Source: a virus (taxonomy: Duplodnaviria; Caudoviricetes). From it: a stretch of 64,000 nt of DNA. The DNA lies in the IMG/VR virus record IMGVR_UViG_3300032092_000001; one strand, 5' to 3'. This document shows, piece by piece, positions 14,130 through 52,196 of the stretch. The number at the start of each line of letters is the position of its first letter. Position 1 is the first letter of the stretch. Both the position numbers and the translations under genes were made by a program. The notes under the pieces were generated by a model. It did no database searches. It was given only the letters and a program-made list of their open reading frames with translations, and was not told the DNA's origin.

Positions 14130-14594
14130 TTAGATAATCTTCTTAAACCACTTTAGTGACTCTTGTATTTGTTCTGAGACTAATGGAGCCTTTGATTTTA
14201 GGTTAACGTTCTCCTCAATCTCTTCCATTGTATACATTTTGTTTGAGCATTCACATGTTTCACCTTCATACATCTCACCACACTCGTTACACTCTTTTTT
14301 AGATTCACTCATTTTACCTGACATACATTCACAAGTTTCAGCTTCATAAATCTCGCCACACTCATTACAAGTTTTCATTAATTTTTTATTAATGTTTGTA
14401 TGTTTGTATTCCATTACTTCACCTTTATTATTAACCGTAATTCCACCTTCATCTAATGCGTAATTACCGACAGTCAGAGGTGTCTCACTAGGTCCTTTAC
14501 CTTCACGAGTCACATAACCATCATATAGTTTAGTGTGTTTTTCCTTAATGGAATTTTTTTCTTCTTCAGATATGTTTAAAAAATAAGCTCTCAT
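14130..14594 (-). CDS. Hypothetical protein with ISEEEK leader and duplicated Cys motif
   Basis: ISEEEKNSIKEKH N-terminus; CNECGxxYExETCEC twice. Confidence 0.7.
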   Translation of the reverse strand: MRAYFLNISEEEKNSIKEKHTKLYDGYVTREGKGPSETPLTVGNYALDEGGITVNNKGEVMEYKHTNINKKLMKTCNECGEIYEAETCECMSGKMSESKKECNECGEMYEGETCECSNKMYTMEEIEENVNLKSKAPLVSEQIQESLKWFKKII

Positions 14595-14660
14595 AATTTA
14601 ATTTTCTTATAAATATATTGACATTACCATTTGACAAAAAAAGATAATTAATTTAAATTT

Positions 14661-15167
14661 ATGGTTATGACACCTGAATTAAAAAAACAACCGGTATTCA
14701 AGGACCACAGAGGTTCATTCACACCAATCAAATTATCCAATAAATGGGTCCAATCCAACATTAGTATTAACGATGATATTTTTGTTTTTCGTGGATTACA
14801 TTTACAGAAATATCCAAAGTCACAAGCCAAACAAGTGATGGTTATTCAGGGTAAATTGATTGATTTTTGTGTATGTGTTGACAAACTCAACCCAAATTTT
14901 GGAAAAGTTTTTGAATATATGATGAATGAAGGAGATGTTCTATATGTACCTCATGGATATGCTCACGGATTTTTAACTCTACAAAGTGGAACTATTGTCA
15001 ACTATTTGGTTGATGAAATGTATTCTCCCGAACATGAACTATGTGTTAAATGGGATTCGGTTGAAGAGGTTAGAGAAACTATTACAAAATTAACCTCAGG
15101 GTTTACATTCAAACTTAAAATGAGCGATAAAGATAATGAAGGTATTCATTTTACAAATTTGGTATGA
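14661..15167 (+). CDS. rfbC: dTDP-4-dehydrorhamnose 3,5-epimerase
   Basis: FKDHRGSF, QSNIS, RGLHLQ, QAK, VPHGYAHGFLTL. Confidence 0.88.
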   Translation: MVMTPELKKQPVFKDHRGSFTPIKLSNKWVQSNISINDDIFVFRGLHLQKYPKSQAKQVMVIQGKLIDFCVCVDKLNPNFGKVFEYMMNEGDVLYVPHGYAHGFLTLQSGTIVNYLVDEMYSPEHELCVKWDSVEEVRETITKLTSGFTFKLKMSDKDNEGIHFTNLV

Positions 15168-15400
15168 CAAGGGAAGAGGTTGAAGAACTATACGAAGGAG
15201 CAATACTACTTGAGGGATTTGACGATTGTATTGTTGGAGTTACTGAGGAATTTGGTAATGGGATTAGAATACTATACTCAAGAGACAAAATTTTAGAGTC
15301 CCTACAAAAAGATATGTCCGAAGAAGATGCTATTGAGTATTATTACTATAATATAGTAGGTGGTCATTTTGGAGACAGGAATCCAGTATTTCTGGTTTAA
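15164..15400 (+). CDS. Conserved phage hypothetical protein
   Basis: GFDDCIVG...AIEYYYYNIVGG pattern; ATGA overlap with rfbC. Confidence 0.65.
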   Translation: MTREEVEELYEGAILLEGFDDCIVGVTEEFGNGIRILYSRDKILESLQKDMSEEDAIEYYYYNIVGGHFGDRNPVFLV

Positions 15401-15984: not shown

Positions 15985-15999
15985 ATATTTATAAATATG
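15982..15999. promoter_or_regulatory. Palindromic bidirectional TATTTATAAATA element
   Basis: CAT-ATATTTATAAAT-ATG between divergent genes. Confidence 0.7.
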
Positions 16000-16623
16000 A
16001 AGATAATGATTAATGAAACTCAGAAAAGACTTATAACTGAATCTATCAATGATAGAATCAAGAATATTCAAGAAGAGTCAGTTAATATTACAAAACAAGT
16101 AATTGAATCCACCGCAACTCAGACAGGTATTAATTTATCTATGTTGTTAACTTGGGGTACATCAATTGGGGGTTTCATATCTCCTGTTATTCAATGGTTA
16201 CAAGGTAAGAACCCTCAACTAAGTGACATGGATATATCATTAATTATGACGGCAGTTATTGCTGTGATTTTTTATGATAACAAAAAAGTAATTACAGATT
16301 TAGTTAACGAAATTAAAAAAAGAGGTCTTGAAGATTACTTTAAAAATTCATTAAAGAAATCAATTGACTTAAAAAAGACGTTGATAAATTTCCTAAGGAG
16401 TTTAAATATTTCATCATTCAACTTACTTAGTATGTTAAGTTACGCATTTTTGGTGCCTCTACTTCAGATTTTCTATAATATGGCTCACGAAGGTCATTTT
16501 AATTCTCATGATGCTGAAATGATTGCCAAAGCAGTTACGTCGTTTGGTTTAATAACTGTGGGTAGTAATTACCTGAAAGTTTTGATTGAAAAGATTTTAA
16601 ATAGATTTTCTAGCAAAAAGTAA
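15997..16623 (+). CDS. Membrane protein with INE/ITE leader
   Basis: MKIMINETQKRLITES; several hydrophobic segments. Confidence 0.7.
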   Translation: MKIMINETQKRLITESINDRIKNIQEESVNITKQVIESTATQTGINLSMLLTWGTSIGGFISPVIQWLQGKNPQLSDMDISLIMTAVIAVIFYDNKKVITDLVNEIKKRGLEDYFKNSLKKSIDLKKTLINFLRSLNISSFNLLSMLSYAFLVPLLQIFYNMAHEGHFNSHDAEMIAKAVTSFGLITVGSNYLKVLIEKILNRFSSKK

Positions 16624-16876: not shown

Positions 16877-16877
16877 A

Positions 16878-17474
16878 TTACCAATAACCTGGATATGTTT
16901 TTCCACCCCACAAATGTCCAAAACGATTAAGACGACATGCCCAATAACCTGCGGTCATTCTATCTTTCTTGTCTTTACAGTTATGTCTTGATGCAAACGC
17001 CTTACGAGCTTTAGGGTTAGATACTTTAGCGGTTAGACCACCCTTAACATCTCCAAATGATATTTTTTTAACTCTTCCTGTAGATGGGTTTTTAACGTAT
17101 ACTACATATTTTTTTCCACCACCTGTATTTCTTCTTGGTTTACCCAATTCCACTTTTTTACCATTATATTCCGCCTCATTAATAAATTCCTCAGATAATG
17201 GTATGTCTAAATAAACTTCTTTTCCACTTGATAATCTAACCTTTGCACCCAAATCGGTCTCAATTAATTCAACCTCTTCATCACTTAATTCAATATTACC
17301 ATTCTCATATAAATCACGAACTTCGTTAATTAAACTAAAGAAAGAATCGGAATGTGGACGATATATGTTTTCAGTTAATGGTATATTGTTTTTTAAATGG
17401 TAATTCAAACCTTCAGAAACTAATAATTCATTACTTTCCTTTAACACTTTTTTAATCAAATTATCAATTCTCAT
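16878..17474 (-). CDS. Conserved large-phage basic protein
   Basis: C-terminal KKYVVYV...KISFGD...ARKAFASRHNC...AGYWACR motif seen in T4-like and other large viruses; N-terminal VLKES/VSE leader. Confidence 0.65.
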   Translation of the reverse strand: MRIDNLIKKVLKESNELLVSEGLNYHLKNNIPLTENIYRPHSDSFFSLINEVRDLYENGNIELSDEEVELIETDLGAKVRLSSGKEVYLDIPLSEEFINEAEYNGKKVELGKPRRNTGGGKKYVVYVKNPSTGRVKKISFGDVKGGLTAKVSNPKARKAFASRHNCKDKKDRMTAGYWACRLNRFGHLWGGKTYPGYW

Positions 17475-17674
17475 TTTTTCTCACGAAATAAAAAATACAA
17501 CCCAAAGAATGATAGTGCAATACCATAAAAAATTGCGGTGGTAGTCCAATAGGAATTCGTAGCATCTAAAATCATCTTGAAGATTACGTCGAAACCTAAA
17601 GGGTTGAAAAACATTCCAGCCATCAGACAGAAAGTCGCTATGTTTTTGCGAAATAATTGTCTCCAAGTCATCAC
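17471..17674 (-). CDS. Small two-TM membrane protein
   Basis: Two hydrophobic stretches and a basic C-terminus. Confidence 0.6.
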   Translation of the reverse strand: MMTWRQLFRKNIATFCLMAGMFFNPLGFDVIFKMILDATNSYWTTTAIFYGIALSFFGLYFLFREKK

Positions 17675-17794
17675 TATCCATTTATTTGGGGTTAAAGTTT
17701 ATGAATCTGAAAAAAATCAAATTCTTTATCATAAATATTTGTGGGAATCAATATTTGTCGTATATTTGTAGAAATAATTAAATAATCAAGTCCT

Positions 17795-18337
17795 ATGAAA
17801 AACTTATTCCTTTCTTTAGTGTTAGTTTTAACAAGTTTATGTTCATTTGGGCAAGTTAAAAAAGAATTTGTTGCATTGACTGAGGTTGAGCAATTAGTCT
17901 TCAAAAAAATAAATGACTATCGAGTTAAAAACGGATTAAAGTCAATTATTTGGTGTCCTAACTCATACAAATCAGCATACCATCACTCCTACTACTTGTC
18001 AGACCCAAATGTTGAAATTTCACACTTTGAGCCGGAAGATGTTGAAGGTATTGATGAAATTAACACTCATAACGACAGAATTTGTGGGGTTTTAAATTCA
18101 CCTGGGGTTGTTAGTGTTGAAAACGTAATGACAGTCCAAGCGTCCGACCGTTGGCTTAATAGAAAAGATTGTGATGGTAAAAAAACAACATCCGATTTTA
18201 TTTTTAAAGCTTGGTATGAATCTGATAGTCATAACAAGGCAATGTTAAATCCGTCTATGACACATGGGTCAATTGCTATTGTTAGAGAAAAGGATGGTAA
18301 TTATTGCAGACCTGTAATGGTATTCTATAAAAAATAA
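17795..18337 (+). CDS. Secreted CAP (SCP) domain protein
   Basis: Signal peptide ending SFG|Q; INDYR..NGL, ENV, W..S..H..AML; TATATTTG promoter at 17761-17768. Confidence 0.8.
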   Translation: MKNLFLSLVLVLTSLCSFGQVKKEFVALTEVEQLVFKKINDYRVKNGLKSIIWCPNSYKSAYHHSYYLSDPNVEISHFEPEDVEGIDEINTHNDRICGVLNSPGVVSVENVMTVQASDRWLNRKDCDGKKTTSDFIFKAWYESDSHNKAMLNPSMTHGSIAIVREKDGNYCRPVMVFYKK

Positions 18338-18361
18338 AAATGGGGATTACTCCCCATTTTT
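18336..18361. terminator. Bidirectional terminator
   Basis: AAAAATGGGGA-TTAC-TCCCCATTTTT. Confidence 0.8.
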
Positions 18362-18364
18362 ATT

Positions 18365-19495
18365 TTATTGTCCTTTAGTCTTATATGATGACCAATTCTT
18401 CGCAATTTTTTCAGCTGTGGTCCTCGGTACTTCATTTCCAGGGACACTCCAATCACTACCTGAACCTCCGTATCTGTATCGATACGAATAATTTGGCCAT
18501 TTTTTAAAGTAATCTTGACATTTTGGTTCTTTTCCCGCTCCGTGATACTCATATTGGAAACACCAACGTGCGGTCTCATCACTCCACATACCCTTACCAA
18601 GTACAAAATCTGAATTTGAAACACTTTCACCTGCCAAATCACCTTCTTGTACAGGTATCCATCTTACTTTACCTGCAACTTGATTGTCATCACCATTTGA
18701 GTAATATACTGACGCATAATTAGGTTTCTGCACCTTACATCTATAAATCCCTTGAGCATCTGTTGCGAACCCATCCGCACAAAATGTGATAATTCTAGTA
18801 TGAGGCGCATTCCATGCCAATATTCTATACGGCTGAAATGAGTAAGTTTGACTTGATTTTGTTTCAACCTCACCTTTAGCTTGTATTGTTATAGTTACAA
18901 ATTGATATGGCTGATATTGAGGTTCCGTAGATTTATTAACATTAGGAGTATAATCAGGTCCCGCAAATGCTTGTGAGATATCGGTAATATATTTAACCTT
19001 ATCTAATGATATTCCTGGAATTGTAGATAAATAATTTTTAATTGAACTAAACGCAGTATCCGCTCTTTTTTGAGCTAAATCAATATTAAAGGCCTTTCTT
19101 TCTTCTTCGGTTTTTCCTGGTCCTGATTTTGAACTACCTGCGGTAACAATAACTTCGGTTTCAACATTTTTTAACCCCTGATTATTATACCAATTACTAA
19201 TTTTTGTTTTTTCATCATCTGTTAAACTCCATGGTTGTGACTTACCTGGAGCAAATTTAGTTTCGGCTTTTATAATCAAAGGTTTAACTTTAGATGTTTC
19301 ATTCCTAACTAATTTAGTTCCATCAGGAGAAATAAAAGTCCCAGGCGTTGGATTTGGTGGTTGATGTTGCTCATTTACCAACTCTGTATATTTTTTTTCA
19401 AGAACGTTAAAGTAATTAATTTCCGTTTTTTGATTTTCATGAAGAGAACGAATTTTTTCTTTTTCGTTTTCTGATATAATAATTCTTTTTCCCAT
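18365..19495 (-). CDS. OmpA-C-like domain protein with ISENEK leader
   Basis: F..GKS...V.AGSS...NIDLAQKRA...YL pattern; start MGKRIIISENEKEKI. Confidence 0.55.
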   Translation of the reverse strand: MGKRIIISENEKEKIRSLHENQKTEINYFNVLEKKYTELVNEQHQPPNPTPGTFISPDGTKLVRNETSKVKPLIIKAETKFAPGKSQPWSLTDDEKTKISNWYNNQGLKNVETEVIVTAGSSKSGPGKTEEERKAFNIDLAQKRADTAFSSIKNYLSTIPGISLDKVKYITDISQAFAGPDYTPNVNKSTEPQYQPYQFVTITIQAKGEVETKSSQTYSFQPYRILAWNAPHTRIITFCADGFATDAQGIYRCKVQKPNYASVYYSNGDDNQVAGKVRWIPVQEGDLAGESVSNSDFVLGKGMWSDETARWCFQYEYHGAGKEPKCQDYFKKWPNYSYRYRYGGSGSDWSVPGNEVPRTTAEKIAKNWSSYKTKGQ

Positions 19496-19523: not shown

Positions 19524-20129
19524 TTAATTAGTCCAAATATTAATTTCAACCCATTGGTCATTTAAATATTTTGGGTCCTGTGGGTTATCAACACCTTGTT
19601 TATAAGGTATTGAACCTTGTTTATATCTCCCACTTACTGATGACATTCCTTTTGGCCAAGATGGTAACTTTTCTAATTGACTTCTAAAGTAATCTCCAAG
19701 TGTCCCCCCTCTTTTTTGAGATAAAGTATTAACATCTGAACCTGTCTTAGGAGTCTGTGACTCTGAAGCCACCCAACTAATTTGAAATGGTTTGTTTGAT
19801 TTCGATAAATATTCTTTAGCCTTTGTTAAAAAGTTTTGAACTTCCTGAAAGTTTCTAATGGAATCTTTATCAAGTCCTGTTTTACCCGTATTAAAATAAA
19901 ATTTATTATTTAACTTTAAAACATCTTTTAGATTTTGTTTACTAGCAGCCGATGACGTGCCGGTCTTAACATCCACACTTGTGTTTGGCGTTACCGGTCC
20001 TCCAGTTGACGGGGGGTCCGTTTCATTAATTTGGGACTCTGAAATCAAATATCCATTTTTTGTTGCGGACAAATGCATTTCAATAATTCGTTGTCTTTCA
20101 CTATCGTCAATTGTAAATAAATTTTTCAT
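19524..20129 (-). CDS. Second OmpA-C-like domain protein
   Basis: FYFNTGKT.L...ASES...LSQKRG...Q.V.I; start MKNLFTIDDSERQRIIEMH. Confidence 0.55.
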   Translation of the reverse strand: MKNLFTIDDSERQRIIEMHLSATKNGYLISESQINETDPPSTGGPVTPNTSVDVKTGTSSAASKQNLKDVLKLNNKFYFNTGKTGLDKDSIRNFQEVQNFLTKAKEYLSKSNKPFQISWVASESQTPKTGSDVNTLSQKRGGTLGDYFRSQLEKLPSWPKGMSSVSGRYKQGSIPYKQGVDNPQDPKYLNDQWVEINIWTN

Positions 20130-23068: not shown

Positions 23069-23779
23069 ATGGGAATATCAGAATTGAGAGATTATTTGGA
23101 AACCGAGGTTTCAAAAAAGATGATAAAATTATTATCTAAAATCATGAAGAGTTATAATAGAGAACGTCTCTATCAAACAATTACAATATATAATGGTGAT
23201 GATGTTAATTATTATTTTTCACCTCATACAGAATCGGGCTCAATTGAACTTCCTCCATCTATAACAAATTATTTAGACAATCTTTATGAAAAAATATCTA
23301 ATATGGATATTGAAAGTAATGAAGATGATGTTAACTATTCAACAATAGAAGTTATTTTTGATTTTGATGACGACGTGTTTAAAGTATGGATGACTGATTA
23401 CGTATACGAAACTCAATCGTTTTCAACTGAAAGTGAGTTAGATGAAAACGATGAAAAAGAAATTATTGAAACTTTAAACCAATGGTTGAGTGAAGGTCAT
23501 AAATTTGTTAAAGTTGATTATAGTGGAGGTGGTGATAGTGGATATATTGAAAGTAATGGATATGGTGAAGGTGGGATTAATGATATTGGAATTCCAGCAG
23601 GTTTTGAGGACTATATCTATCAAATGCTTGAATCAAATTACGGTGGGTGGGAAATAAATGAAGGTTCTCAAGGAACCTTCATAATTAATACTGAAGAAAA
23701 GACTGTTACTTTAGAACACAACATGAACGATGAACGTCCTGTTGATAGTGAGTTACTAAAAGTACATTTAAACTATTAA
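23069..23779 (+). CDS. Acidic protein, C-terminal DUF6878-like domain
   Basis: VDYSGGGDSG...GGWEINEGSQG. Confidence 0.5.
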   Translation: MGISELRDYLETEVSKKMIKLLSKIMKSYNRERLYQTITIYNGDDVNYYFSPHTESGSIELPPSITNYLDNLYEKISNMDIESNEDDVNYSTIEVIFDFDDDVFKVWMTDYVYETQSFSTESELDENDEKEIIETLNQWLSEGHKFVKVDYSGGGDSGYIESNGYGEGGINDIGIPAGFEDYIYQMLESNYGGWEINEGSQGTFIINTEEKTVTLEHNMNDERPVDSELLKVHLNY

Positions 23780-24102
23780 TAAACTTGTATTGTTCTTTGT
23801 GGTCTGTCATCACCAAAATCAGGACAGAAATATACATTTACTCCGTCGTGATAGATTGCACCACCAACACCATTAGGTATCTTGTGTTTCTCATGGAATT
23901 TATCACCTAAGTCAATTTGATAATTTCCATCAGCAACTTTTATACACTTATTTTCCATTTCGTAACCACAATGATATTGTTGGTTTTTATTTTTATGTTT
24001 CATAAATTCATCAAATGACATTACAAATGATGCATTTTCATTCATTACTTTTTTAACAACTTTTCCTAATTGTCTTTCTGTTATCAAAATATTCTTTTTC
24101 AT
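23776..24102 (-). CDS. Hypothetical protein with LITE leader
   Basis: MKKNILITERQL..VVKKVMNE. Confidence 0.7.
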   Translation of the reverse strand: MKKNILITERQLGKVVKKVMNENASFVMSFDEFMKHKNKNQQYHCGYEMENKCIKVADGNYQIDLGDKFHEKHKIPNGVGGAIYHDGVNVYFCPDFGDDRPQRTIQVY

Positions 24103-27115: not shown

Positions 27116-27592
27116 TTAAAATCTTACAGGTGGTACCACAACAGTTCCTCCACCGCCACAAGGACATCCGCATTTCTTTTGCCAATATGACGGCCATTTA
27201 CATGGATTAGCACAAGTAGACGCACAATTTCCAGGTGCAATATCTTCTTTTACATCTCCATCGCGTTGTAATCTTTTTTTCTTTCTTTGTTCTCCGATTT
27301 CACCACCATTATCGTTAGATTGCATGTCTTTAATTGCTGACATCATTTCTTTCGCCTCTTTTTTCTTACCTGACTTCATTAATTCTTTAGCGTATGCTTT
27401 AAGGATGTCATACCCGGCAATACCTAATAAACCAATTGTAGTTCCAACAATTGTTAAAATTGCATCACCTGTTTCCAACGCTACCGGTAAATACTCCTGC
27501 TCATTTACTGATTTTTTTCTTTTTGTTTCAGTTACCAAATTTTTGATTAAATCTGTTAATTCAGATTCTGTTAGTCTTATTTTCTTTTTCAT
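27116..27592 (-). CDS. RLTESEL-leader protein with TM helix and Cys-rich tail
   Basis: MKKKIRLTESEL; ILTIVGTTIGLLGIAG; CASTCANPC...CGCPC. Confidence 0.7.
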   Translation of the reverse strand: MKKKIRLTESELTDLIKNLVTETKRKKSVNEQEYLPVALETGDAILTIVGTTIGLLGIAGYDILKAYAKELMKSGKKKEAKEMMSAIKDMQSNDNGGEIGEQRKKKRLQRDGDVKEDIAPGNCASTCANPCKWPSYWQKKCGCPCGGGGTVVVPPVRF

Positions 27593-37300: not shown

Positions 37301-37365
37301 TATAAGAATAAATATAATCAAAACAAAAAAGGGGGTAGGGGGATTGGCAACAACGGAAAAAAATT

Positions 37366-41753: not shown

Positions 41754-42032
41754 ATGAAATACATTATCACAGAATCACAGTTAGATACATTTTTACTTAG
41801 GAGGTTTACAATGGATGAATTGGAATCACTTAGGGATGATTATAACTATATTATGGATGACGAAGATTTTGAAGACTCTGCCGATAGAGATGACTACGCT
41901 TATGAACTACTTGAAAAGTTCATTGATAGACATAGAAGTGAGGAGTTTTTACAATATGATAATGACACTGAATTCTATGAAAACCGTGCCGATTATATTA
42001 GGGCGTTACTTAAATTCTTACATTCTAATTAA
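41754..42032 (+). CDS. ITESQ-leader acidic protein
   Basis: MKYIITESQ; TATTTAT at 41741. Confidence 0.75.
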   Translation: MKYIITESQLDTFLLRRFTMDELESLRDDYNYIMDDEDFEDSADRDDYAYELLEKFIDRHRSEEFLQYDNDTEFYENRADYIRALLKFLHSN

Positions 42033-42048
42033 TTAATATTTATATATA

Positions 42049-42402
42049 ATGAAATACCTTATCACCGAATCACAAATTGATAGAGTAGTGTCCATATACT
42101 TGAATAATCAGGACTTTGTGATATATGACAACAAGAAGAAATTCAATAATTATATATATTTCTTAAACAGTGAGTCAGATAGGGAATCGCAGATTAGTGT
42201 TTATACTAACAACGCTTTTGGTGAAGTTAGGAATTGGGTGTTTGTAAATTCTGATTTGATTGAGGAATTATCTACCTTCTTCTCCATAGATAGATTGGAT
42301 TGTTTGAATATAATCAAAATGTGGGTTAATAATACTTTGGGTATTAGTGATAGTACGATTTGGGATGGTCCATATGATTACAGATTAATGGTTAACGAAT
42401 AA
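42049..42402 (+). CDS. ITESQ-YLDNQDF family paralogue 1
   Basis: MKYLITESQID...YLNNQDF...WVNNTL. Confidence 0.8.
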   Translation: MKYLITESQIDRVVSIYLNNQDFVIYDNKKKFNNYIYFLNSESDRESQISVYTNNAFGEVRNWVFVNSDLIEELSTFFSIDRLDCLNIIKMWVNNTLGISDSTIWDGPYDYRLMVNE

Positions 42403-42812
42403 TGAAAGTAATAATCACTGAAAGTCAAGGTAAGAAAACTCTTAAACCATTATTGGCGAAATTTGGTATGCGTACTCTGTGTAAAATGACAGGTAAGTCA
42501 GTTAAAGATGTTATTAATGAAGCAGGTATTAAGGGAACTAAAGAAGATATTATCTTTCTAACAAAAACTATAATTGAGAATGACCTCTCATCCGTCTTAA
42601 CATATTGTAATTATAATATCATACCCACTCAGTACTCTATGGATTTGGTTGTCTATATACCTAAGCCGGCTCCTGAAAATGTGGGAAGGTATATGTTTGA
42701 CCAAGGTACAAGGAATGTGTATAGAGATGCTATCTCCGAGGCTTTATATAAATTAGGTGGCGGTTTAATTAAAGGTCATAATATTGAGGTTCATAATACA
42801 GGTAACTGTTAA
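42402..42812 (+). CDS. ITESQ-leader protein
   Basis: MKVIITESQ. Confidence 0.75.
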   Translation: MKVIITESQGKKTLKPLLAKFGMRTLCKMTGKSVKDVINEAGIKGTKEDIIFLTKTIIENDLSSVLTYCNYNIIPTQYSMDLVVYIPKPAPENVGRYMFDQGTRNVYRDAISEALYKLGGGLIKGHNIEVHNTGNC

Positions 42813-42828: not shown

Positions 42829-43161
42829 GTGAAATATCTTATAACCGAATCACAGATAGACAAAGTAATCTTTAGGTACTTGGACAATCAGGACTTTATT
42901 CCAATAGAAAAGGGTGATAATATATACTTTGTAAATTCAGAAGGAGATGAATATGCTCAAATCAGATATGATAAAGATGATGGTTGGTGTTATATATCTT
43001 GGAAGTTAGTTAATGAAATTTATTCTTTCTTTTCTTTGGAAGAATATGATTCCGAACAAGTTATTGGTAGGTGGGTTGAGAATACCCTACAGATGAGGGT
43101 CACTGACACCGTGCCCATTTTTAATCCGGATAATCCTTCGTTGATAATACCCTCTAACTAA
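42829..43161 (+). CDS. ITESQ-YLDNQDF family paralogue 2 (GTG start)
   Basis: MKYLITESQIDKVIFRYLDNQDF...WVENTL...IPSN. Confidence 0.8.
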   Translation: MKYLITESQIDKVIFRYLDNQDFIPIEKGDNIYFVNSEGDEYAQIRYDKDDGWCYISWKLVNEIYSFFSLEEYDSEQVIGRWVENTLQMRVTDTVPIFNPDNPSLIIPSN

Positions 43162-44677: not shown

Positions 44678-44995
44678 ATGAAGATTGAGAATAAAGTTAA
44701 TGCAATTGTAAAACTAATTAATACATTATACTCACCTGACGAGATTAAAGTTAGAAAGAGTGAATATGATGATGAGATATTAATTGATGTTTACTTTTCT
44801 CATATTGATGATTCATATATAACCAACTCTGACTATTATGACCTTAAAAAATTAAAACAACAAAATTTTGAGGGTGAGATTAGAAGGACGATACAGGACT
44901 TCTTGAGTATTAAAACAAGCGGATTAAACCCACATACAGGTTTCTCCCCATACGAGGTTCACGGTATAACAATAGACGTAAGATTAACTAAATGA
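44678..44995 (+). CDS. Hypothetical protein
   Basis: Start MKIENKV after TATCTTTG and TATTTAT. Confidence 0.7.
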   Translation: MKIENKVNAIVKLINTLYSPDEIKVRKSEYDDEILIDVYFSHIDDSYITNSDYYDLKKLKQQNFEGEIRRTIQDFLSIKTSGLNPHTGFSPYEVHGITIDVRLTK

Positions 44996-45321
44996 AATAC
45001 CTTATAACAGAATCACAAATAGATAGAATAATCTTTAGGTATCTTGACAATCAGGACTTTATTCTTGTTGGTAATGGTCTCAGTTTATTTTTTATTAATT
45101 CTGAGGGTGATGAATCAGCTCAAATTAGATATAATAAAGATGATGGTTGGTGTTATATAAACCACGATTTAATTAGGGAGATTACCTCCTTCTTTTCTAT
45201 CAAATCATATGAAGCTGAAAAGATTATCAGTAAATGGGTTGAATATGTTTTGGAGATGGAAGTTACTAACATCGGTAAACCTGGATATGTGACCTCAAAC
45301 ACACTATACTATTCTATATGA
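44992..45321 (+). CDS. ITESQ-YLDNQDF family paralogue 3
   Basis: MKYLITESQIDRIIFRYLDNQDF. Confidence 0.8.
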   Translation: MKYLITESQIDRIIFRYLDNQDFILVGNGLSLFFINSEGDESAQIRYNKDDGWCYINHDLIREITSFFSIKSYEAEKIISKWVEYVLEMEVTNIGKPGYVTSNTLYYSI

Positions 45322-45629
45322 AATACCTTATAACAGAATCACAATTTGACAAAGTAATATTTAGATACTTAGACAATCAAGATTTTATTCAGATAGAAAA
45401 AGGAAATAAAATATACTTTGTAAATTCAGAAGGGGATGAATATGCTCAAATCAGATATGATAAAGAATATGGTTGGTGTTATATACATTACAAGTTAGTT
45501 GATGAAATTTCTACCTTCTTTTCTTTGGTACGAGATGATTCTAAAGAAGTTATTGGTAGATGGGTTGAGAATACCATCCAGATGAGGGTCACTCACACCA
45601 TAATATGGGTATATATCCAGGTGGAATAG
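45318..45629 (+). CDS. ITESQ-YLDNQDF family paralogue 4
   Basis: Near-copy of 42829; TAG stop lies at the end of a 30-nt spacer-like insert. Confidence 0.8.
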   Translation: MKYLITESQFDKVIFRYLDNQDFIQIEKGNKIYFVNSEGDEYAQIRYDKEYGWCYIHYKLVDEISTFFSLVRDDSKEVIGRWVENTIQMRVTHTIIWVYIQVE

Positions 45630-45663
45630 GTTGAGAATACCCTCTAACTAATATTTATATATA

Positions 45664-45996
45664 ATGAAATACCTTATAACAGAATCACAATTAGATAAAG
45701 TAATCTTTAAATACTTAGATAATCAGGACTTCATTCAGATTGAGAAGGGTGATGGTGTATACTTTGTAAATTCAGAAGGTGATGAATATGCTCAGATTAG
45801 ATATTTTAAAAAGGATAACAAATGTGTCATATATACAGGATTAATTGATGAGGTATCTTCTTTCTTTTCTATGCAAGGTTATGATGCTAGAGAAACTATA
45901 GGTAGATGGGTTGAGGAGACCTTAAAGGTAGATATTGATTATTGTTTGTGGGCATATAACATTAAATCTGAGTGGATGCAGATTCCGTCTAATTAA
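45664..45996 (+). CDS. ITESQ-YLDNQDF family paralogue 5
   Basis: MKYLITESQLDKVIFKYLDNQDF...IPSN. Confidence 0.8.
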   Translation: MKYLITESQLDKVIFKYLDNQDFIQIEKGDGVYFVNSEGDEYAQIRYFKKDNKCVIYTGLIDEVSSFFSMQGYDARETIGRWVEETLKVDIDYCLWAYNIKSEWMQIPSN

Positions 45997-46009: not shown

Positions 46010-46366
46010 ATGAAAGTATTAGTCACCGAATCTAAATTAAAAACATTTATTAAGAACAAATTAAATATTGACTTCACAGGCCGTGTGGAGCTTGACCCGA
46101 GCATATATAAAATACTGAATGATTTTGATTTCTATTTTACTTACGATGGTTTACGAAGAAGACAATTAGGTGATAACTATGGTCCGATGTATCTGATAGA
46201 ATTGGATGATAATCATAAGGTATTATATCAAATGAATTATAGTTCAAACCACCCATTGATTCTTGATAATAGAGGTGATGGATATGAAGAGTCCGACTTT
46301 ATGAATTTACTTGGTATCTCCGCTCTTGGGATAACATTAGAACAATTCCTTGACCTATACATATGA
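46010..46366 (+). CDS. VTES-leader protein
   Basis: Start MKVLVTESKL after TATTTAT. Confidence 0.7.
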   Translation: MKVLVTESKLKTFIKNKLNIDFTGRVELDPSIYKILNDFDFYFTYDGLRRRQLGDNYGPMYLIELDDNHKVLYQMNYSSNHPLILDNRGDGYEESDFMNLLGISALGITLEQFLDLYI

Positions 46367-46662
46367 AATACATTATAACAGAATCACGATTTGATAAAGC
46401 AGTATTTAAGTATTTGGATAATCAGGACTTTATTAAGGTTAACAAAAAAGAAAACATATTCTTTCTTAATTCTTCAGATGATAAATTATCGGATGCTCAA
46501 ATCGCATATGTTAAAACTGATGGTGAGTGTTACATAAAATATGAATTAATGGTAGAGATTTCTGATTTTTTTTCTATTGATGTATATGAGGTCAATAAAA
46601 TCATTGGTAGATGGTTTGAAGATACTCAACAAAGAAGAGTATCATCAATCCATTGGGTGTAA
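46363..46662 (+). CDS. ITESQ-YLDNQDF family paralogue 6
   Basis: MKYIITESRFDKAVFKYLDNQDF. Confidence 0.8.
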   Translation: MKYIITESRFDKAVFKYLDNQDFIKVNKKENIFFLNSSDDKLSDAQIAYVKTDGECYIKYELMVEISDFFSIDVYEVNKIIGRWFEDTQQRRVSSIHWV

Positions 46663-46674: not shown

Positions 46675-47046
46675 ATGAAATATATTATCACAGAATCACA
46701 ACATAAGTTAATCACCGAGCTTGAAAGAACTTGGAGAAATGTTGAGTATACTGAACAATATGAGAAACTTAAACATAAACTTGTTCCTTATTTTGAGAAG
46801 TTGGTTGACTCATATGATGAAAGTGAATTTAGAATTGGTTTATTTGATTCTGAAGGAAAACTAATGATGTTGTATATAAAACAAAGTGGTGAATTATATT
46901 ATAGTAGACACCTTGATAATATGTATGGTGACGCTTTTCCTCATCCCATTTGGCAAGTCCACGGCGATTTCATTCTATCAGATGTATTTAACATATACTT
47001 CCCCGACTATGAAGTTAAATCAGTTAAAAGTGTAACATTCTCATGA
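46675..47046 (+). CDS. ITESQ-leader protein, distant family member
   Basis: MKYIITESQHKLITE. Confidence 0.75.
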   Translation: MKYIITESQHKLITELERTWRNVEYTEQYEKLKHKLVPYFEKLVDSYDESEFRIGLFDSEGKLMMLYIKQSGELYYSRHLDNMYGDAFPHPIWQVHGDFILSDVFNIYFPDYEVKSVKSVTFS

Positions 47047-47384
47047 AATACCTAATCACCGAATCACAACGAGATAAAGCCGTATTCAAATACTTGGATA
47101 ATCAAGATTTTGAAATATCTAAAATTGGTGCCAGTACATACTTTAAACACCCTGATGATGACGGGTTTGCTCAAATTAAATATGGTGGTAATCACGCTAA
47201 TAATGAATTGTGTTTTATCTATATAGATTTAATTAAAGAAATTTCTTCCTTCTTTTCTCTTAACGATTATCAATCTACCAGAGCTGTTGGACAATGGGTT
47301 AAGAAAACCCTGAACTTGGAGGGTCAAATGTCCAACAAGATAATGCAACTCAAATCGTCATTAAAAATACCAACTGAATATTAA
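47043..47384 (+). CDS. ITESQ-YLDNQDF family paralogue 7
   Basis: MKYLITESQRDKAVFKYLDNQDF...WVKKTL...IPTE. Confidence 0.8.
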   Translation: MKYLITESQRDKAVFKYLDNQDFEISKIGASTYFKHPDDDGFAQIKYGGNHANNELCFIYIDLIKEISSFFSLNDYQSTRAVGQWVKKTLNLEGQMSNKIMQLKSSLKIPTEY

Positions 47385-47420: not shown

Positions 47421-48020
47421 ATGGTAACAGATAAGATAAAACAATACATATTCAAACGTCTATACAAAGAGTTAGGTAATGCGGAAATAATTCCATACAA
47501 TAATTCCATATGGTTTATTGATAGAAATGAAAGGTATTGGTATTTTGAACTTGAAAATAACGGAAATCTTTATTGGAGATATAATTATTTTACAAATTTT
47601 TTCTCTTGGTTCTCTTTGGAACCTAATCAGTTTGAACCAATTATATCTGAATGGGTGGAAGAGGTATTAAATCATAAGGTATCCACAACAGGAAACCAAG
47701 GCCATGATAGCGGATTCTGGGTGGAAGATGTATTAAATCATAAGGTATCTACAACCGTCCCCTACTTGACCATTGACAATGTCCAGGTGGAAAAGGTATT
47801 AAATCATAAGGTATCTACAACATGGTCAGGTCACTCAACCCAACCAAATATGGTGGAACAGGTCTTAAATCATAAGGTATCAACAACTATTCCTGTGAAT
47901 TTGGGAATGGGTCAGCGGGTGAAATATGTCTTAAATCGTAAGGTAGAAACAACAAAAAGCTTTGGAGCTCCCAAGCACTTTCAGGTGGATAAGGTATTAA
48001 ATGAAAACCCCACTGAGTAG
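47421..48020 (+). CDS. Divergent family member without the ITESQ leader, carrying an in-frame 22-aa repeat array
   Basis: Start MVTDKIK after TATCTTTG; VE.VLNHKVSTT five times plus a partial copy, separated by unrelated 10-mers. Confidence 0.75.
   Translation: MVTDKIKQYIFKRLYKELGNAEIIPYNNSIWFIDRNERYWYFELENNGNLYWRYNYFTNFFSWFSLEPNQFEPIISEWVEEVLNHKVSTTGNQGHDSGFWVEDVLNHKVSTTVPYLTIDNVQVEKVLNHKVSTTWSGHSTQPNMVEQVLNHKVSTTIPVNLGMGQRVKYVLNRKVETTKSFGAPKHFQVDKVLNENPTE
47654..48002. CRISPR. CRISPR-like array inside a CDS: 5 full 36-nt repeats, 1 partial repeat, 5 unique 30-nt spacers
   Basis: Consensus GGTGGAANAGGTATTAAATCATAAGGTATCNACAAC at 47654, 47720, 47786, 47852, 47918 and partial at 47984; exact 66-nt period; no cas genes in window; repeats degenerate. 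Confidence 0.5.
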
Positions 48021-48069: not shown

Positions 48070-48096
48070 TTTCTTTAATGTTTTTATAGGTCCATA

Positions 48097-48510
48097 TTAA
48101 TTACTCTTCCCTGTTCCTTTATGTATTAATCTTAAACAATCAGGTGATATGTTATCAAATGTAACTATATGGTGTTTGTAGTCACCACCCTCAAAATGTC
48201 TATCTTTATACCAAGTAACACCCGCACATTCTGTATTAATTACCCATATATCATCGTCGTAAGTTGAATCAAACATTTGTTTCTTATCAAATGAATCTGT
48301 CGCAAATATAGATGGTTTACATTCCACATCACCTCCCACATGTTGTTGGTAACAATCCCCCACATACGTTTGTAAACCTGTAAGTTCTATGTTCTCTCTC
48401 CATATAGGGTTTGATTTGTGAACTACAAATTTACCAGGTGTATATTCATCTCCTGATGGAGAATATATTTCTTCCCTTAATATTCTTCTTATTGTTTCTT
48501 GTAGGTTCAT
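48097..48510 (-). CDS. LQE-leader protein with ADP-ribosyltransferase-like fold
   Basis: HKS...NI..TGL...IFAT...IWVI...I.P..L pattern of H-x-S/T ART (Tpt1/DarT-like) families. Confidence 0.45.
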   Translation of the reverse strand: MNLQETIRRILREEIYSPSGDEYTPGKFVVHKSNPIWRENIELTGLQTYVGDCYQQHVGGDVECKPSIFATDSFDKKQMFDSTYDDDIWVINTECAGVTWYKDRHFEGGDYKHHIVTFDNISPDCLRLIHKGTGKSN

Positions 48511-48511
48511 A

Positions 48512-49039
48512 TTACATACTTTTTTTAATCCTGTCTCCAACTTTTTGAAAGAACTCTAATAAATTTTCTTCAAGTTCTTCATTAAATTCTACATAGTCAT
48601 CACCATCGTGTAAGTCAAATGAATGAACGTTATAGTCCTCATCAGTATACATTGTTACATAATATTCTTCACCATCAATAAAGAATTCACCAATATGTTT
48701 ATATTCAACTGGGTCTTCGTCCCACTCTTGGGTTTCGTTATAAATGAATTTTACATCATAATCATCAACAATATCATTAAATTCGTAACCTGAATCAATA
48801 CTCACAATATCTTCCAATTCGTTGTCAGTAATATCTTGTGATTTATTATGTAAATATTTTTTTTCGGCCTTGGTTAATGACTCCATTCCGAATTGATTAA
48901 TTTTATCTAAAATACGATTGGTTAATTCATCATTTTCATTGATGACCCCCATCATTGATTTTATTCTTGATATTTGTTCTTGTAGTTTCATATTAGTCTC
49001 CTCTTTAAGTATTCTTCTTATGTGTTCTTGTAGGTCCAT
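48512..49039 (-). CDS. Protein with double leader and DUF6576-like helix pair
   Basis: MDLQEHIRRILKEE then MKLQEQISRIKSMMGVINE; RILDKINQFGMESLTKAEKKYL. Confidence 0.65.
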   Translation of the reverse strand: MDLQEHIRRILKEETNMKLQEQISRIKSMMGVINENDELTNRILDKINQFGMESLTKAEKKYLHNKSQDITDNELEDIVSIDSGYEFNDIVDDYDVKFIYNETQEWDEDPVEYKHIGEFFIDGEEYYVTMYTDEDYNVHSFDLHDGDDYVEFNEELEENLLEFFQKVGDRIKKSM

Positions 49040-49040
49040 A

Positions 49041-49913
49041 TTATTCGGAATATAAATAAAAAAAGAATTTAAATGGGAAATAACTTGTGATAGTTGAACC
49101 AATTTCTTTAATAAAGTTTTGTTTTACCTTATTAAAATTTTTGGGGTTATCTATTGCGAATTGTCTATCATAAAATATATGAACGTTATAACCTCCAATC
49201 CTTTCATCATATTCAAACTCAACACGTTTAACTGCCGGTATTTCAAGTGTGTTAATTAAACGTGCAGCTTTCTTTTCAAAATATTCTCTTTTACTTTCAG
49301 TTTCTTCCCTTAATACTCTAACAATACTTTCTCTCATAGGACTGTAACCCATATTGTCATCTAACCTATCATCCATATCTTGTCGTAGTTTAGGTAAAAA
49401 ATTATCCATTATAATTTCATATACACTTGGTAAATAAACTTTTTCATACCAACTAAGTAAATCATCCACATTACTAAAACCCTCAACTTCGTCAAGTTGT
49501 TCGTAGTAATCTCCACCTCCTTCAATCTCAGCAATAAGGGTATCATTAGAGGTATCAACCAACGAATACCAATCAGTTTCAACAGGAGTCCACGTCATAC
49601 CATCCCAAAAAGGAGTCGCCATTACCCATACTGTTTCAACCATATTAGGTAAGAAGTGTTCCCCATAAAATTTACCTTCCCAATAAACAACACCATCAGA
49701 ACTTGTTGAAATCTTAAATTCTTTATATTCTGTCGGTAAATTTCCGTTATTAATATTTTCAATTATTATTTCATTAGCCAACCCAATATTAGATTCAATT
49801 CTCATCCCAACCATTTTCACAAGTTTGGTTAATGGAATACCCAAAGCTTCTTTGGTTTTCCAAAGACCTAACTCATCAATTAACTTTAATATTTTATCTC
49901 TTCCTTTAGTCAT
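49041..49913 (-). CDS. Two-domain hypothetical protein
   Basis: Internal MRESIVRVLREE leader-like junction. Confidence 0.7.
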   Translation of the reverse strand: MTKGRDKILKLIDELGLWKTKEALGIPLTKLVKMVGMRIESNIGLANEIIIENINNGNLPTEYKEFKISTSSDGVVYWEGKFYGEHFLPNMVETVWVMATPFWDGMTWTPVETDWYSLVDTSNDTLIAEIEGGGDYYEQLDEVEGFSNVDDLLSWYEKVYLPSVYEIIMDNFLPKLRQDMDDRLDDNMGYSPMRESIVRVLREETESKREYFEKKAARLINTLEIPAVKRVEFEYDERIGGYNVHIFYDRQFAIDNPKNFNKVKQNFIKEIGSTITSYFPFKFFFYLYSE

Positions 49914-50967
49914 TATTACTTAATCTTTTTATTTCAGCATTACGAAGTTTCTTTAAATACATATCTTCAATATACCCAGGTTCATTACCTTCATATCTTA
50001 ATAAATCATTTCTTTTAAACAAAGTTCCTTTCATAATAAACTCAATCATCTCATCTTGAGTAACTCCTTCAGGTATTTCAGTAACTGGTGGGACACATAC
50101 ATCAACTCTGTCTGTAAATGATAATTCATCAATAGATATATCATCCCTACCCATTTCATTTATTACATTATCAAAAAAATTATCTTCAAACCATTCTTCA
50201 ATTAAGTAAATAAGATAATTTTTTCTAATAGGTATATAGTTTAATATATCATTAACAAACTCTTTGGGTATAGATAAAAATGACTCCATGAATTTTCTTT
50301 CAGATGTTGGTCTTCGGTCATCAGTTTCTTCAAAAAACAATGCTAAATTCATCATTTTTTTACCATTTTTACAAAACTCAATATCGTGTCTTGTTTTATA
50401 ACTTTCAGTGTGATACATATTCATATCTGAAAAAATCTTATTCAACCTATCTAATATAAGTTTTTCAGTTTTCTCATTTGGTTTCAAGAATTTCCTACTT
50501 ACTTCTTCTTGTAATACTTGTCTAATATGTTCTTTCAAAAAATTATTCTCATTCATATCTTCTTTCTTTTTTGTTTCAACTGGTTTGACTTTGAACCAAC
50601 TAAATGATAAATATTTTGGGTATTTACCTCCGTGTATTGAATTGAATACCGATAATAGTATTTCTTTAAGTGTGTCAAGCCAACCGTCATTTATACCAAC
50701 CAAATCTCCAAAAGTGTATTCATCATAATCAGTTCCAAATTCAGGTACTGGTGAGTAATCATTGTATTTTCTCCATTGTTCACCTATCCAATCAGCATCA
50801 ACATAAATGTCACCATCCATATACAAATAATTCATGTTGTCATTTAATCCAGCACGAAATATTTCAATACCTTCAAACCACCAAGGGAAATTTTGGGATA
50901 GTTTCTTATTCAATACTTTATTGAATATTTTTAATTGTGGTTCGGTTAAATTAAGTGACTCTTTCAT
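49906..50967 (-). CDS. Two-domain hypothetical protein
   Basis: LNLTEPQL N-terminus; internal LKEHIRQVLQEE junction. Confidence 0.7.
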   Translation of the reverse strand: MKESLNLTEPQLKIFNKVLNKKLSQNFPWWFEGIEIFRAGLNDNMNYLYMDGDIYVDADWIGEQWRKYNDYSPVPEFGTDYDEYTFGDLVGINDGWLDTLKEILLSVFNSIHGGKYPKYLSFSWFKVKPVETKKKEDMNENNFLKEHIRQVLQEEVSRKFLKPNEKTEKLILDRLNKIFSDMNMYHTESYKTRHDIEFCKNGKKMMNLALFFEETDDRRPTSERKFMESFLSIPKEFVNDILNYIPIRKNYLIYLIEEWFEDNFFDNVINEMGRDDISIDELSFTDRVDVCVPPVTEIPEGVTQDEMIEFIMKGTLFKRNDLLRYEGNEPGYIEDMYLKKLRNAEIKRLSNND

Positions 50968-50978
50968 TGTATAATTCT

Positions 50979-52196
50979 TCAATCTTCTTTATGTATACCT
51001 TTATAATATACATCATATAATACTATTTCATATAAATTATTAAATATGTATTCAGGTAATTCCGAGTAGGCCAAGTTTATAAGTCCGAGATATTTTCTAT
51101 CATTATCAAATCTTTCTCCTGTTATACCACCCTCACCAAAATACTGAATTTCGTAATTCCTATTCCCATTGTTAGTCTTAACGCTATACATTAAAGACAA
51201 CATCTTATCACCACTAACATAATCACTTAACCATTGTGATACCACATGTTCGGCAGTATCATCTAAGAATTGGTATTTAACACCTTTAGGTAGTGCGTCT
51301 AAATCAAACTTCCTTCCTAATTGATATGGACTTAAATTAGACATATCTAAGAAATTAAATAGTCCTTGTTTTTCAATAAGTTTTAATGCCTTACTCTCAC
51401 TTTCTTGAAGAGGTTTCTTTTTCTCTTCATACCACCATTTACTTTTGTTATACGACTCAAGTGTTTCAGTATTGAAACTAATTCCAGCTTTGAATTCAGG
51501 AAAGAATTCACGAATAACAGACCTAACATTACTCAAAGTATTATGAAATCTATCTGACTCTTCACCTGAAAACGAACCTTTCATTAAAACGGTAACATGA
51601 CATTGTGTTCCATAATCAGTATTGTAGATATTAACCTCAACGTCGTGGAAATTATCAGTAAGAATACTTTTATCAAATCTTGCTTTAACAAATGATGCGA
51701 CTATTTTTTCTAATTTACTATTACTATCCATAGAGCGAATTGACTCATCATTACTTTCACTAATAGTCGTGTCTTTAGGAGTAATTGCAAAATAAACGTT
51801 GAAGCCGGCTATTTTAGTATTCAATCCAAGTTTTGTCTCAAGTATATCTTCTAACCTGTGTTCAAATGTATAGATATCCGCAGTTTCAAATAATTCCTTT
51901 GGTAATTTGTGATAAACTTGTATACCATAATATATATAGAAATTATTAACCTCATCATAATCACTACGACTTTCCCTGAAATACTTATTTAGTTCAGGTT
52001 TTAACTTAATGATAACTCTACCTTCCAATGCATCACCAACTACCTCAATACCATTAACTCCGTAGACCGAATCTAAATAGGGATAATCTTTAATCAGTTT
52101 TTGAGCGTCTTTTACAATAACTTTTTCAAGTCCTGTAAAGTCACCAGTCTTCACCTCTCGTGATTCGGTCAAAACTTTCCTGATTAATTCTTTCAT
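50979..52196 (-). CDS. Three-domain hypothetical protein
   Basis: MKELIRKVLTES; internal TISES and PLQES junctions. Confidence 0.7.
   Translation of the reverse strand: MKELIRKVLTESREVKTGDFTGLEKVIVKDAQKLIKDYPYLDSVYGVNGIEVVGDALEGRVIIKLKPELNKYFRESRSDYDEVNNFYIYYGIQVYHKLPKELFETADIYTFEHRLEDILETKLGLNTKIAGFNVYFAITPKDTTISESNDESIRSMDSNSKLEKIVASFVKARFDKSILTDNFHDVEVNIYNTDYGTQCHVTVLMKGSFSGEESDRFHNTLSNVRSVIREFFPEFKAGISFNTETLESYNKSKWWYEEKKKPLQESESKALKLIEKQGLFNFLDMSNLSPYQLGRKFDLDALPKGVKYQFLDDTAEHVVSQWLSDYVSGDKMLSLMYSVKTNNGNRNYEIQYFGEGGITGERFDNDRKYLGLINLAYSELPEYIFNNLYEIVLYDVYYKGIHKED

Follow-up and report, generated by a model that had tools for sequence, protein, structure and literature searches.

Why should dozens of genes with otherwise dissimilar products begin with the same few short peptides? 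This question is raised by a 64,000-nucleotide stretch of viral DNA (IMG/VR record IMGVR_UViG_3300032092_000001; Duplodnaviria, Caudoviricetes), referred to below as the window, in which a curated set of 35 open reading frames (ORFs) starts with a leader of approximately 7–27 residues. An original prediction had counted about 35–40 such genes and proposed that the leaders address a repertoire of effectors to the phage head; every leader position that it reported was recovered on re-check. The precedent that it invoked is real: the diverse, unrelated internal proteins of phage T4 share a short N-terminal capsid-targeting sequence (CTS), which takes them into the scaffold core and is removed by the protease gp21 after L/I-x-E (PMC9026906, PMC3012670). 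The evidence presented here, which is circumstantial, leads us to favour, at an evenly balanced probability, a reading by analogy with T4 in which the leaders would be capsid-targeting, protease-processed propeptides of a T4-type head assembly that has been greatly expanded.

Leaders shared by the N-termini of mostly unrelated proteins

Leaders were assigned by pattern: A, MK[YVL][LIV][IV]TES[QKR] (12 ORFs and 4 variants); B, RLTES[DE]L..[IL][IV]K..[IV].E (6 ORFs and 1 variant); C, the SEEEK..I.E.H type, [ST].E[EQ][KR]..I..[..]H (5 ORFs); D/E, LQE.IRRIL[KR]EE or [IL][IR]KK?VL[KT]E (4 ORFs); and F, the E..R.K..MG type, E..R.[KL]..[ML][GK] (3 ORFs). Four over-long ORFs (re-set starts 35328, 38167, 37301 and 52196) were re-started at an internal ATG preceded at 5–6 nt by a TATTTAT motif, which puts the leader at residue 1. 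For a fifth ORF the start was moved to 19495 on the basis of leader motif and gene overlap; here the TATTTAT lies 19 nt upstream.

All-versus-all local alignment of the first 31 residues yielded 71 pairs with a score of at least 40, against one pair for shuffled N-termini and 17 for internal segments, most of the latter probably coming from one paralogue family. The leader patterns matched 27 of 111 N-termini in the window and none of 419 internal 32-residue segments. The corresponding values were 36 of 279 and 3 of 1890 in G002, a contig of 240,759 bp that is the nearest large relative in IMG/VR and encodes a ClpB-like protein 85% identical to that of the window. Unbiased clustering of the N-termini of the window and G002 placed the MKYLITESQ and RLTESDL types in one cluster of 45, and these A and B types align position by position (LITESQLDKVIFRYLD versus RLTESDLTNIVKRVIRE); the notion of four separate codes was thus too strong. 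Further clusters comprised the KKVLKE/IRRILKEE types (n=10) and a group of eight N-termini, seven of them of the SEEEK type. Beyond the leader clusters and a family of untagged paralogues described below, the sole N-terminus common to unrelated proteins was the classical lipoprotein signal peptide.

These signal peptides bear on the idea that the leaders are themselves an unconventional export signal, taking late proteins, cell-wall enzymes included, over the cytoplasmic membrane. Lysozyme, GH19, peptidoglycan-binding-like and SusC-N-terminal-like domains among the tagged bodies would agree with it. However, where this genome uses true lipoprotein signal peptides, they fall into an N-terminal cluster of their own and belong to other genes, behind host-type promoters. 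The leaders are charged and amphipathic, with neither a twin-arginine motif nor the hydrophobic core of 10–15 residues and the signal-peptidase site or lipobox by which Sec and lipoprotein signals are recognized. As most tagged bodies are moreover small, acidic or helical, with no function assigned, we regard an export role as extremely improbable.

Modular exchange of leaders

Bodies were compared by BLASTP (E<1e-3) after the first 30 residues had been cut off. The claim that they are otherwise unrelated stands for most leader genes, whose bodies gave no match to each other within the window at this threshold. It fails for the YLDNQDF family, in which seven tagged proteins (starting at 42049, 42829, 44992, 45318, 45664, 46363 and 47043) are joined by an untagged one starting at 47421, and for the bodies of the genes starting at 33819 and 35343 (re-set start 35328), which are paralogues. 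One marginal pair was found among the untagged proteins (22020/40196, E=4e-4).

The gene at 47421–48020 (+) belongs to an untagged paralogue family (MVTDKIKQ.IFK.LYKELGN.EIIP) that is also represented in G002 (435–2521 and 9657–10385) and stands behind host-type promoters. Judged by a weak similarity of the bodies, this family and the YLDNQDF proteins look like untagged and tagged versions of related bodies.

The related-locus set, 92 sequences comprising 91 related loci and the window (1.37 Mb), contains 253 tagged ORFs, and its 173 B-tagged proteins split into 87 body clusters. Eight body clusters hold members with differing leader types. Since homologous bodies bear different leader types in related phages, the leaders are interchangeable. 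The window protein starting at 42402, for example, has an A leader, and its homologue in the related locus L003 has MNLQETIRRVLREE. In the same locus (L003:5876–6283), a B leader stands ahead of a YLDNQYF body and the old A leader has decayed to ISKSES. This decay of a displaced A leader behind a new B leader suggests that the tag must stand at the extreme N-terminus. In the 92 sequences, 169 of the 173 RLTESDL matches begin 5–9 residues past the start Met. Some proteins have a linker after the leader, either PT-rich (G002 35422) or acidic (window 33819 and 35343).

Conservation of the peptide and its occurrence in metagenomes

Third codon positions vary freely in the six B leaders of the window. 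Among 116 distinct B leaders of the related loci, five different codons, drawn from both families, occur for the Ser of TES, and three to five for each of the Leu and Arg positions. Because synonymous codons vary so freely, selection must act on the amino acids of the leader and not on its DNA, and an explanation of the conservation at the RNA level was rejected on the same codon evidence. In the B-tagged protein of 251 aa encoded at 33064–33819 (−), the leader is invariant over homologues with bodies only 23–34% identical, the fixed residues being R6, L7, T8, E9, S10, I15, V16, V19, I20, E22 and E24.

The peptide is widespread. The two best-conserved stretches of the B leader, back-translated, matched more than 589 places in IMG/VR, and CheckV puts the genomes behind all 54 B-leader contigs examined at approximately 300 kb. 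A B-leader profile run against 1.84 billion proteins matched the representatives of 7,830 clusters (50% identity) at E≤1e-3; 344 of them reached E≤1e-10. Among the 150 best of the 7,830 matches, most start at residue 1, and many metagenomic tagged proteins bear a second, internal copy of the leader. A variant, MNKKLIRLTESDLHRIVKESVNRILKE, was found in 98 IMG/VR stretches; 72 of the 75 distinct proteins bear it directly past the start Met. The contigs concerned have 35% GC and reach 295–413 kb; that these phages come from rumen or gut is our guess, made from sample numbers alone.

No model in Pfam, NCBIfam or PHROGs covers the leaders, and a large, strongly conserved protein module is therefore absent from these collections. 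A protein-atlas look-up returned only unnamed clusters, under the useful score, and a tblastn search of 50,697 deposited phage genomes with two leader variants gave no match, queries this short being liable to escape detection. Nothing relevant on the leader motif strings or DUF6576 was found in the literature searched, and the papers on bS21 phages (PMC9723584) and on Jug phages make no mention of such leaders.

Another origin of the shared N-termini could be gene birth, by duplication and recombination through a PeSL-like promoter-plus-start cassette, the peptide having no sorting function. Mobile cassettes are documented for T4-type phages (PMC2839356, PMC4122927), the tagged genes are clustered in a hyperplastic region, and the sequence TATTTAT-N5-ATG AAA TAC CTT ATA ACA GAA TCA is near-identical in DNA among adjacent A-type genes. 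However, the 116 distinct B leaders, with their fixed amino acids, varying codons and Ser from two codon families, argue against it. So does the retention of the same peptide by two phage groups that differ in habitat and in GC content (31% versus 35%), as well as its presence on 7,830 clusters. Neutral hitch-hiking would not hold 11–14 residues invariant beside bodies at 23–34% identity, and a cassette of this kind is in our view a decidedly unlikely explanation.

Head-assembly genes of the same genome

Positions 214–12253 of the window are 100% identical to a stretch of the JGI metagenome contig Ga0114354_1000001 (284,559 bp), which must therefore be the window's own genome, that of a jumbo phage. 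About 10 kb upstream of the window this contig encodes TerL, Portal_T4, Peptidase_S77, an acidic scaffold-like protein and a Gp23-type capsid protein; this head-module part carries the locus label L188. The gp21-like protease that the original prediction had advised seeking elsewhere in the genome is thus present. The Peptidase_S77 protein (PF03420; L188:11310–12029, 239 aa) matches PDB entry 5JBL, T4 gp21, at E=3e-18, and has ELNHP and SSRG where the aligned T4 protein has ELNAP and ASRG. An acidic protein of 487 aa with many [LIV]-x-E occupies the position of the gp22 scaffold. The Gp23-type capsid protein (PF07068), whose G002 orthologue matches T4 gp23 at E=2e-23, contains in its N-terminal region ...HLINE and then AATT, 12 residues ahead of the segment that aligns to T4 residues 93–126.

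Tagged proteins are encoded within the head module as well (L188:18158–18664, 17638–18153 and 16976–17176). The first of them has MKKIRLTESQLVGIIKQCINE followed by DUF6576 (a precomputed match), and MEKLIKKILKEE and an internal KLTESQLNLLYRKVIKEA are seen among these proteins too. In G002, 32 of 36 tagged genes lie within 40 kb flanking the head module. All five large B-leader contigs and all five complete H-variant genomes encode S77, which was also found in 16 of 49 fragments. When the S77 protease of G002 was modelled in complex with residues 1–45 of a B-tagged protein, the prediction scored 0.00 (partner pLDDT ~31) and favours neither side.

The head module of G002 also includes, on the opposite strand, a gene for the ribosomal protein bS21 (PF01165, E=2e-10; L172:10756–10941, that is, G002 65756–65941, −), which sits between the portal-side and protease-side genes. 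A bS21 ORF was not found at the syntenic spot of the window's contig, where there are just 112 nt (L188:10711–10823). By its G002 bS21 gene the lineage belongs with, or adjoins, the ‘bS21 phages’ of freshwater Bacteroidota (Chen et al. 2022; PMC9723584). The source of the window is an uncultivated freshwater phage of about 285 kb and of the huge Bacteroidota type.

Expression signals of the leader genes

The motif TATTTAT is located at most 45 nt upstream of 24 of the 35 leader genes; the statement that nearly all of them follow it does not extend to the other 11, which have no TATTTAT of their own and, in those inspected, abut or overlap the preceding gene on the same strand. The motif is enriched ahead of tagged relative to untagged genes (odds ratio 7.9, p=2e-5; a second odds ratio was 6.3). 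It also precedes TerL, the protease and the scaffold, and in G002 many tail genes, and is therefore very likely a late promoter element. Genes behind the host-type promoter TAnnTTTG do lack leaders, as had been noticed at the outset: none of 13 is tagged, and none of the 35 leader genes has this promoter. The host-type promoters are consistent with a Bacteroidota host.

The spacing between TATTTAT and ATG peaks at 4–7 nt, with a second peak at 12–18 nt; close examples are seen at 42038–42048 and 45653–45663, and also in G002. Should TATTTAT function like a -10 element, many of the late mRNAs would have no 5′ leader, or hardly any. Such spacing could mean that the first codons, or the nascent peptide, are tuned for initiation on these mRNAs, perhaps through ribosomes with the phage bS21, and a mild excess of A/T-ending codons in the leaders (AGA, GAT, AAA, GAA) as well as the bS21 gene in the head module of G002 (PMC9723584) would fit. 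Yet the conservation extends over 22–27 codons and concerns amino acids rather than nucleotides, head genes behind the same promoter have no leader, internal leader copies exist, and the window's contig is without bS21 at the syntenic place. The chance that the leaders owe their conservation to a role in expression is therefore very slim.

Cleavage-type sites and predicted structure

The motif [LI]-x-E with its Glu at residues 6–10 is present in 33% of accessory-region genes (window and G002 pooled) versus 10% of other genes, and its positional distribution peaks at residues 6–10 and 21–25. Within the leader consensus, [LIV]-x-E appears as LTE/S or ITE/S at residues 7–9 and as VI.E/, ILRE/ or VLKE/ at the end (slashes denote potential cuts).

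In the AF2 model of the YLDNQDF protein encoded at 45318–45629 (pLDDT 90), residues 1–6 are outside the fold and a helix begins at Glu7; in that of the B-tagged protein 33064–33819 (pLDDT 66), residues 1–8 are outside the fold and the helix begins at Glu9. As modelled, the leader would consist of a short extended tail, a Thr helix cap and an amphipathic, mostly basic helix. Fold searches with the YLDNQDF model were uninformative, the best hits being E=0.79 (Foldseek on PDB) and Z=4.5 (VIA-align), with AFDB matches all uncharacterised.

A helix of this type is also what the main rival explanation calls for, namely a permanent, uncleaved docking or assembly helix that binds a common partner other than the prohead core or drives self-association. 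This partner could be found on the outside of the capsid (decoration or display), elsewhere in the virion, in the membrane or in a late intracellular assembly. The leader is indeed amphipathic with a hydrophobic face, its T-E-S-D/Q reads as a helix N-cap, the helix of the YLDNQDF family is integrated in the AF2 fold and internal leader repeats stand ahead of successive modules. Several of the domains found are, in addition, of extracytoplasmic type (CarboxypepD_reg/SusC-like, weak YARHG, lysozyme and peptidoglycan-binding-like). However, a position at residue 1 would be no requirement for an anchor, whereas more than 95% of the tags are N-terminal and old tags decay behind new ones. A docking helix also leaves unexplained both the two [LI]-x-E peaks and the co-occurrence with S77, and we consider it unlikely.

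Anchors of receptor-binding proteins were considered as well. These are at least 100 residues long and are carried by large fibre proteins; the tagged bodies are mostly of 60–300 aa, and this identification was dropped.

Proposed role of the leaders

The reading put forward originally, that of packaged effectors, divides into two parts. Its packaging part agrees with the S77, Gp23, portal and scaffold genes on the same contig, the TATTTAT motif common to leader and head genes, the [LIV]-x-E in the leader consensus, the interchangeability of the leaders and the T4 precedent. By analogy, we infer that the tagged proteins are packaged, cleaved and ejected. Its other part, an anti-defence or host-takeover role of the bodies, is not supported: in a sample of 105 metagenomic tagged proteins only five had any Pfam domain and 100 had none, and the domains seen among metagenomic and related tagged bodies include PTPS, GNAT, GH19 and peptidoglycan-binding-like ones.

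Under the capsid-targeting reading, TATTTAT-driven late genes would give rise to proteins with an extended tail of 6–8 residues (M-K-K/Y-h-h-(R)-L/I-T). From the Glu of the invariant [LI]-T-E-S box onwards, the chain would continue as an amphipathic, basic helix. This module would dock the protein onto the acidic gp22-like scaffold core during prohead formation. The gp21-family serine protease would then cut after the Glu of [LIV]-x-E, at LTE/S or ITE/S and/or at the terminal VI.E/ or IL.E/, and the freed body would stay inside the head and exit with the DNA at the next infection. Tag types would be swapped in the course of evolution, a new tag landing ahead of the old one, which decays. Since the tag is short and self-contained, it could move freely among genes, and such movement would provide the phage lineage with a large and fast-changing set of tagged cargo.

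Several observations weigh against this reading. The number of tagged proteins in the window, approximately 35, exceeds any documented capsid cargo, a scale without precedent. In the YLDNQDF model the folded body includes the helix that follows ITES (pLDDT 93), which leaves at most 6–7 residues for removal there, and the invariant Thr and Ser/Asp could form a helix N-cap box instead of being protease determinants. The motif [LI]-x-E is common in a proteome rich in Glu, Ile and Leu (1.4% per residue), which makes a lone N-terminal site weak evidence. The internal leader copies of many metagenomic proteins fit fusions or polyproteins but equally a reusable structural helix. Among the tagged proteins are also some with membrane-like segments and some metabolic enzymes (PPK2 in the window; PTPS and GNAT in metagenomes). 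Finally, the leaders do not resemble the T4 CTS in sequence: by eye, all that the two have in common is a beginning with Met-Lys and an end in hydrophobic-x-Glu; a sequence relationship is not required for the proposed mechanism.

It is also conceivable, although quite unlikely in our estimation, that the tag is not a copy of the T4 system and instead marks late proteins of huge Bacteroidota phages for a distinct sorting route, in which several interchangeable tags would lead to one receptor for hundreds of cargo families. This route could consist of active, unfoldase-assisted loading by a ClpB/ClpA-like protein, or its destination could be some surface or compartment that is not the inside of the capsid.

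Leader genes of the window and their surroundings

Most A-leader genes are on the plus strand. YLDNQDF paralogues are encoded at 42049–42402, 42829–43161 (with a GTG start) and 45664–45996, each with TATTTAT 5 nt upstream, and at 44992–45321, 45318–45629 (the AF2-modelled protein), 46363–46662 and 47043–47384 (all +). Unique bodies follow the A leader at 41754–42032 (MKYIITESQ; TATTTAT 6 nt upstream), 42402–42812 (MKVIITESQ; the L003 homologue has an LQE.IRR leader), 46010–46366 (MKVLVTESK; TATTTAT 6 nt upstream) and 46675–47046 (TATTTAT 5 nt upstream), again all on the plus strand. The A leader MKLVITESQ begins a protein of 100 aa at 30223–30525 (−). Variants of the A leader are found at 15997–16623 (+; MKIMINETQKRLITES; TATTTAT 4 nt upstream), 29913–30218 (−; MKYKITQEQ), 37892–38167 (−; MKYVINHSQ) and 36993–37301 (−; MKYVITPEQ), the last two starts having been re-set by a TATTTAT 6 nt upstream. 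The segment 39500–41750, which separates two blocks of leader genes, has a slightly raised GC content (~0.33–0.35) and no ORFs other than short, weakly supported ones; the DNA of the window as a whole is characterized by 31% GC and short, tightly packed ORFs.

The B-leader genes are all on the minus strand. Besides 33064–33819, they are located at 27116–27592 (KIRLTESELTDLIKNLVTE; 158 aa), 33822–34364 (180 aa, unique body), 34612–35328 (start MGKVIRLTESDL; paralogue of 33064–33819, TATTTAT 5 nt upstream), 35927–36574 (RLTETDL; 215 aa) and 38661–38951 (96 aa), and a B variant is at 23776–24102 (MKKNILITERQLGKVVKKVMNE; TATTTAT 6 nt upstream).

C leaders, likewise on the minus strand, occur at 14130–14594 (LNISEEEKNSIKEKH), 18365–19495 (start MGKRIIISENEKEKIRSLHE), 19524–20129 (MKNLFTIDDSERQRIIEMH), 27594–28520 (MKNLFEISSEERDRILEMH, with a SusC/CarboxypepD_reg-like domain) and 32883–33041 (MKHLLNDLSEEEKNRIREQH ... 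GDTKPFLGE). The last ORF, of 52 aa, is a leader with almost no body, and its homologues elsewhere have varied bodies. In this protein and its L003, L008 and L049 homologues, the leader runs into a second conserved block that ends in G-D-[VT]-K-P-[LF]-[LI]-x-E; approximately 45 residues in, this block looks, by its sequence, like a second cleavage-type site.

The remaining leader genes are also on the minus strand. D leaders are carried by 48097–48510 (MNLQETIRRILREE) and 48512–49039 (MDLQEHIRRILKEE, then EQISRIKSMMGVINE, then DUF6576); in the latter protein DUF6576 covers residues 41–68 (30.9 bits versus a Pfam gathering score of 27.3) and thus comes after the leader and is not the leader itself. 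E leaders are present at 16878–17474 (MRIDNLIKKVLKES) and 50979–52196 (MKELIRKVLTES; TATTTAT 5 nt upstream), the second with a weak YARHG match under the Pfam cut-off. The F leader begins a protein of 489 aa at 9206–10675 (LFEEIKRLHEIMGV..NVILE), and F-like leaders begin one of 782 aa at 10702–13050 (QEILERVLLLMKYD..TLSE), whose conservation in G002 is limited to residues 3–39, and the protein encoded at 24116–25834 (MKKLISEISRYKQLLGTQLNE; TATTTAT 5 nt upstream).

This last gene is a single late ORF that combines the leader with a complete PPK2 polyphosphate kinase domain and a phage lysozyme domain; the syntenic gene of L003 encodes a lysozyme of 236 aa with the same leader and without PPK2. 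A leaderless amidase of about 200 aa is conserved in four of four genomes and, by its sequence, is likely to be the endolysin. The tagged PPK2-lysozyme would then be an additional wall enzyme, as expected of a virion-borne one.

Between the cargo region and the head module lies the gene for a ClpB/ClpA-like double-AAA+ protein (AAA, AAA_lid_9, AAA_2, ClpB_D2-small; 214–2253, +). This protein is strongly conserved, with 467 relatives of 56–87% identity in metagenome contigs, and could be a candidate unfoldase tied to head assembly or cargo handling. The interval that separates the ClpB-like gene from the large F-leader genes holds a tRNA-Arg (TCT) gene at 6317–6393 (−) and an HNH endonuclease gene at 6952–7443 (+).

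Significance and comparison with known systems

New in this work are the protease and head module of the window's own genome, the codon test, the leader swaps on homologous bodies, the count of 7,830 clusters and a second lineage of huge phages bearing the tag. If the capsid-targeting reading is true, a 20-residue pattern would reveal from sequence which proteins uncultivated huge Bacteroidota phages carry in their heads and deliver with their DNA. At least 7,830 clusters, nearly all unannotated, would then form a catalogue of candidate early-acting effectors (for instance anti-defence proteins and cell-wall or metabolic enzymes), and the tag would offer a portable means of putting foreign proteins into such phages.

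The leaders resemble the T4 CTS in that a short N-terminal tag ending in hydrophobic-x-Glu is found on unrelated proteins, in a genome with head genes for a protease of the gp21 family, a capsid protein of the gp23 type, an acidic scaffold and a T4 portal. Between relatives, moreover, the set of cargo proteins is hypervariable (PMC9026906, PMC3012670). They differ from it in length, as the T4 tag has 10 residues and the leaders 7–27 with a conserved amphipathic helix, and in the existence of several interchangeable types and of internal copies. T4 has three to four tagged genes, whereas the putative system described here has dozens per genome and thousands of families in metagenomes.

Encapsulin cargo-loading peptides are likewise short and conserved, and they suffice to bring diverse enzymes into an HK97-fold shell. 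They are usually C-terminal, remain uncleaved and bind the shell protein directly, in a bacterial nanocompartment and not a virion, whereas the leaders are N-terminal and belong to a phage. The propeptides of phiKZ-type phages are long and are not known to have a short consensus common to unrelated proteins, and their cleavage motif is S/A/G-x-E, not L/I-x-E. The likeness to phiKZ, 201phi2-1 and SPN3US lies in the jumbo genome and the diverged T4-type protease (gp175, gp245); in these phages many head proteins are processed after Glu, and paralogous families are packaged (PMC5694885, PMC10052503, PMC9026906). With the PeSL cassettes of T4-type phages the leaders share short conserved sequences at gene starts, hyperplastic regions and modular exchange (PMC2839356, PMC4122927). 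PeSLs, however, are non-coding DNA elements, whereas here the conservation is on the encoded peptide.

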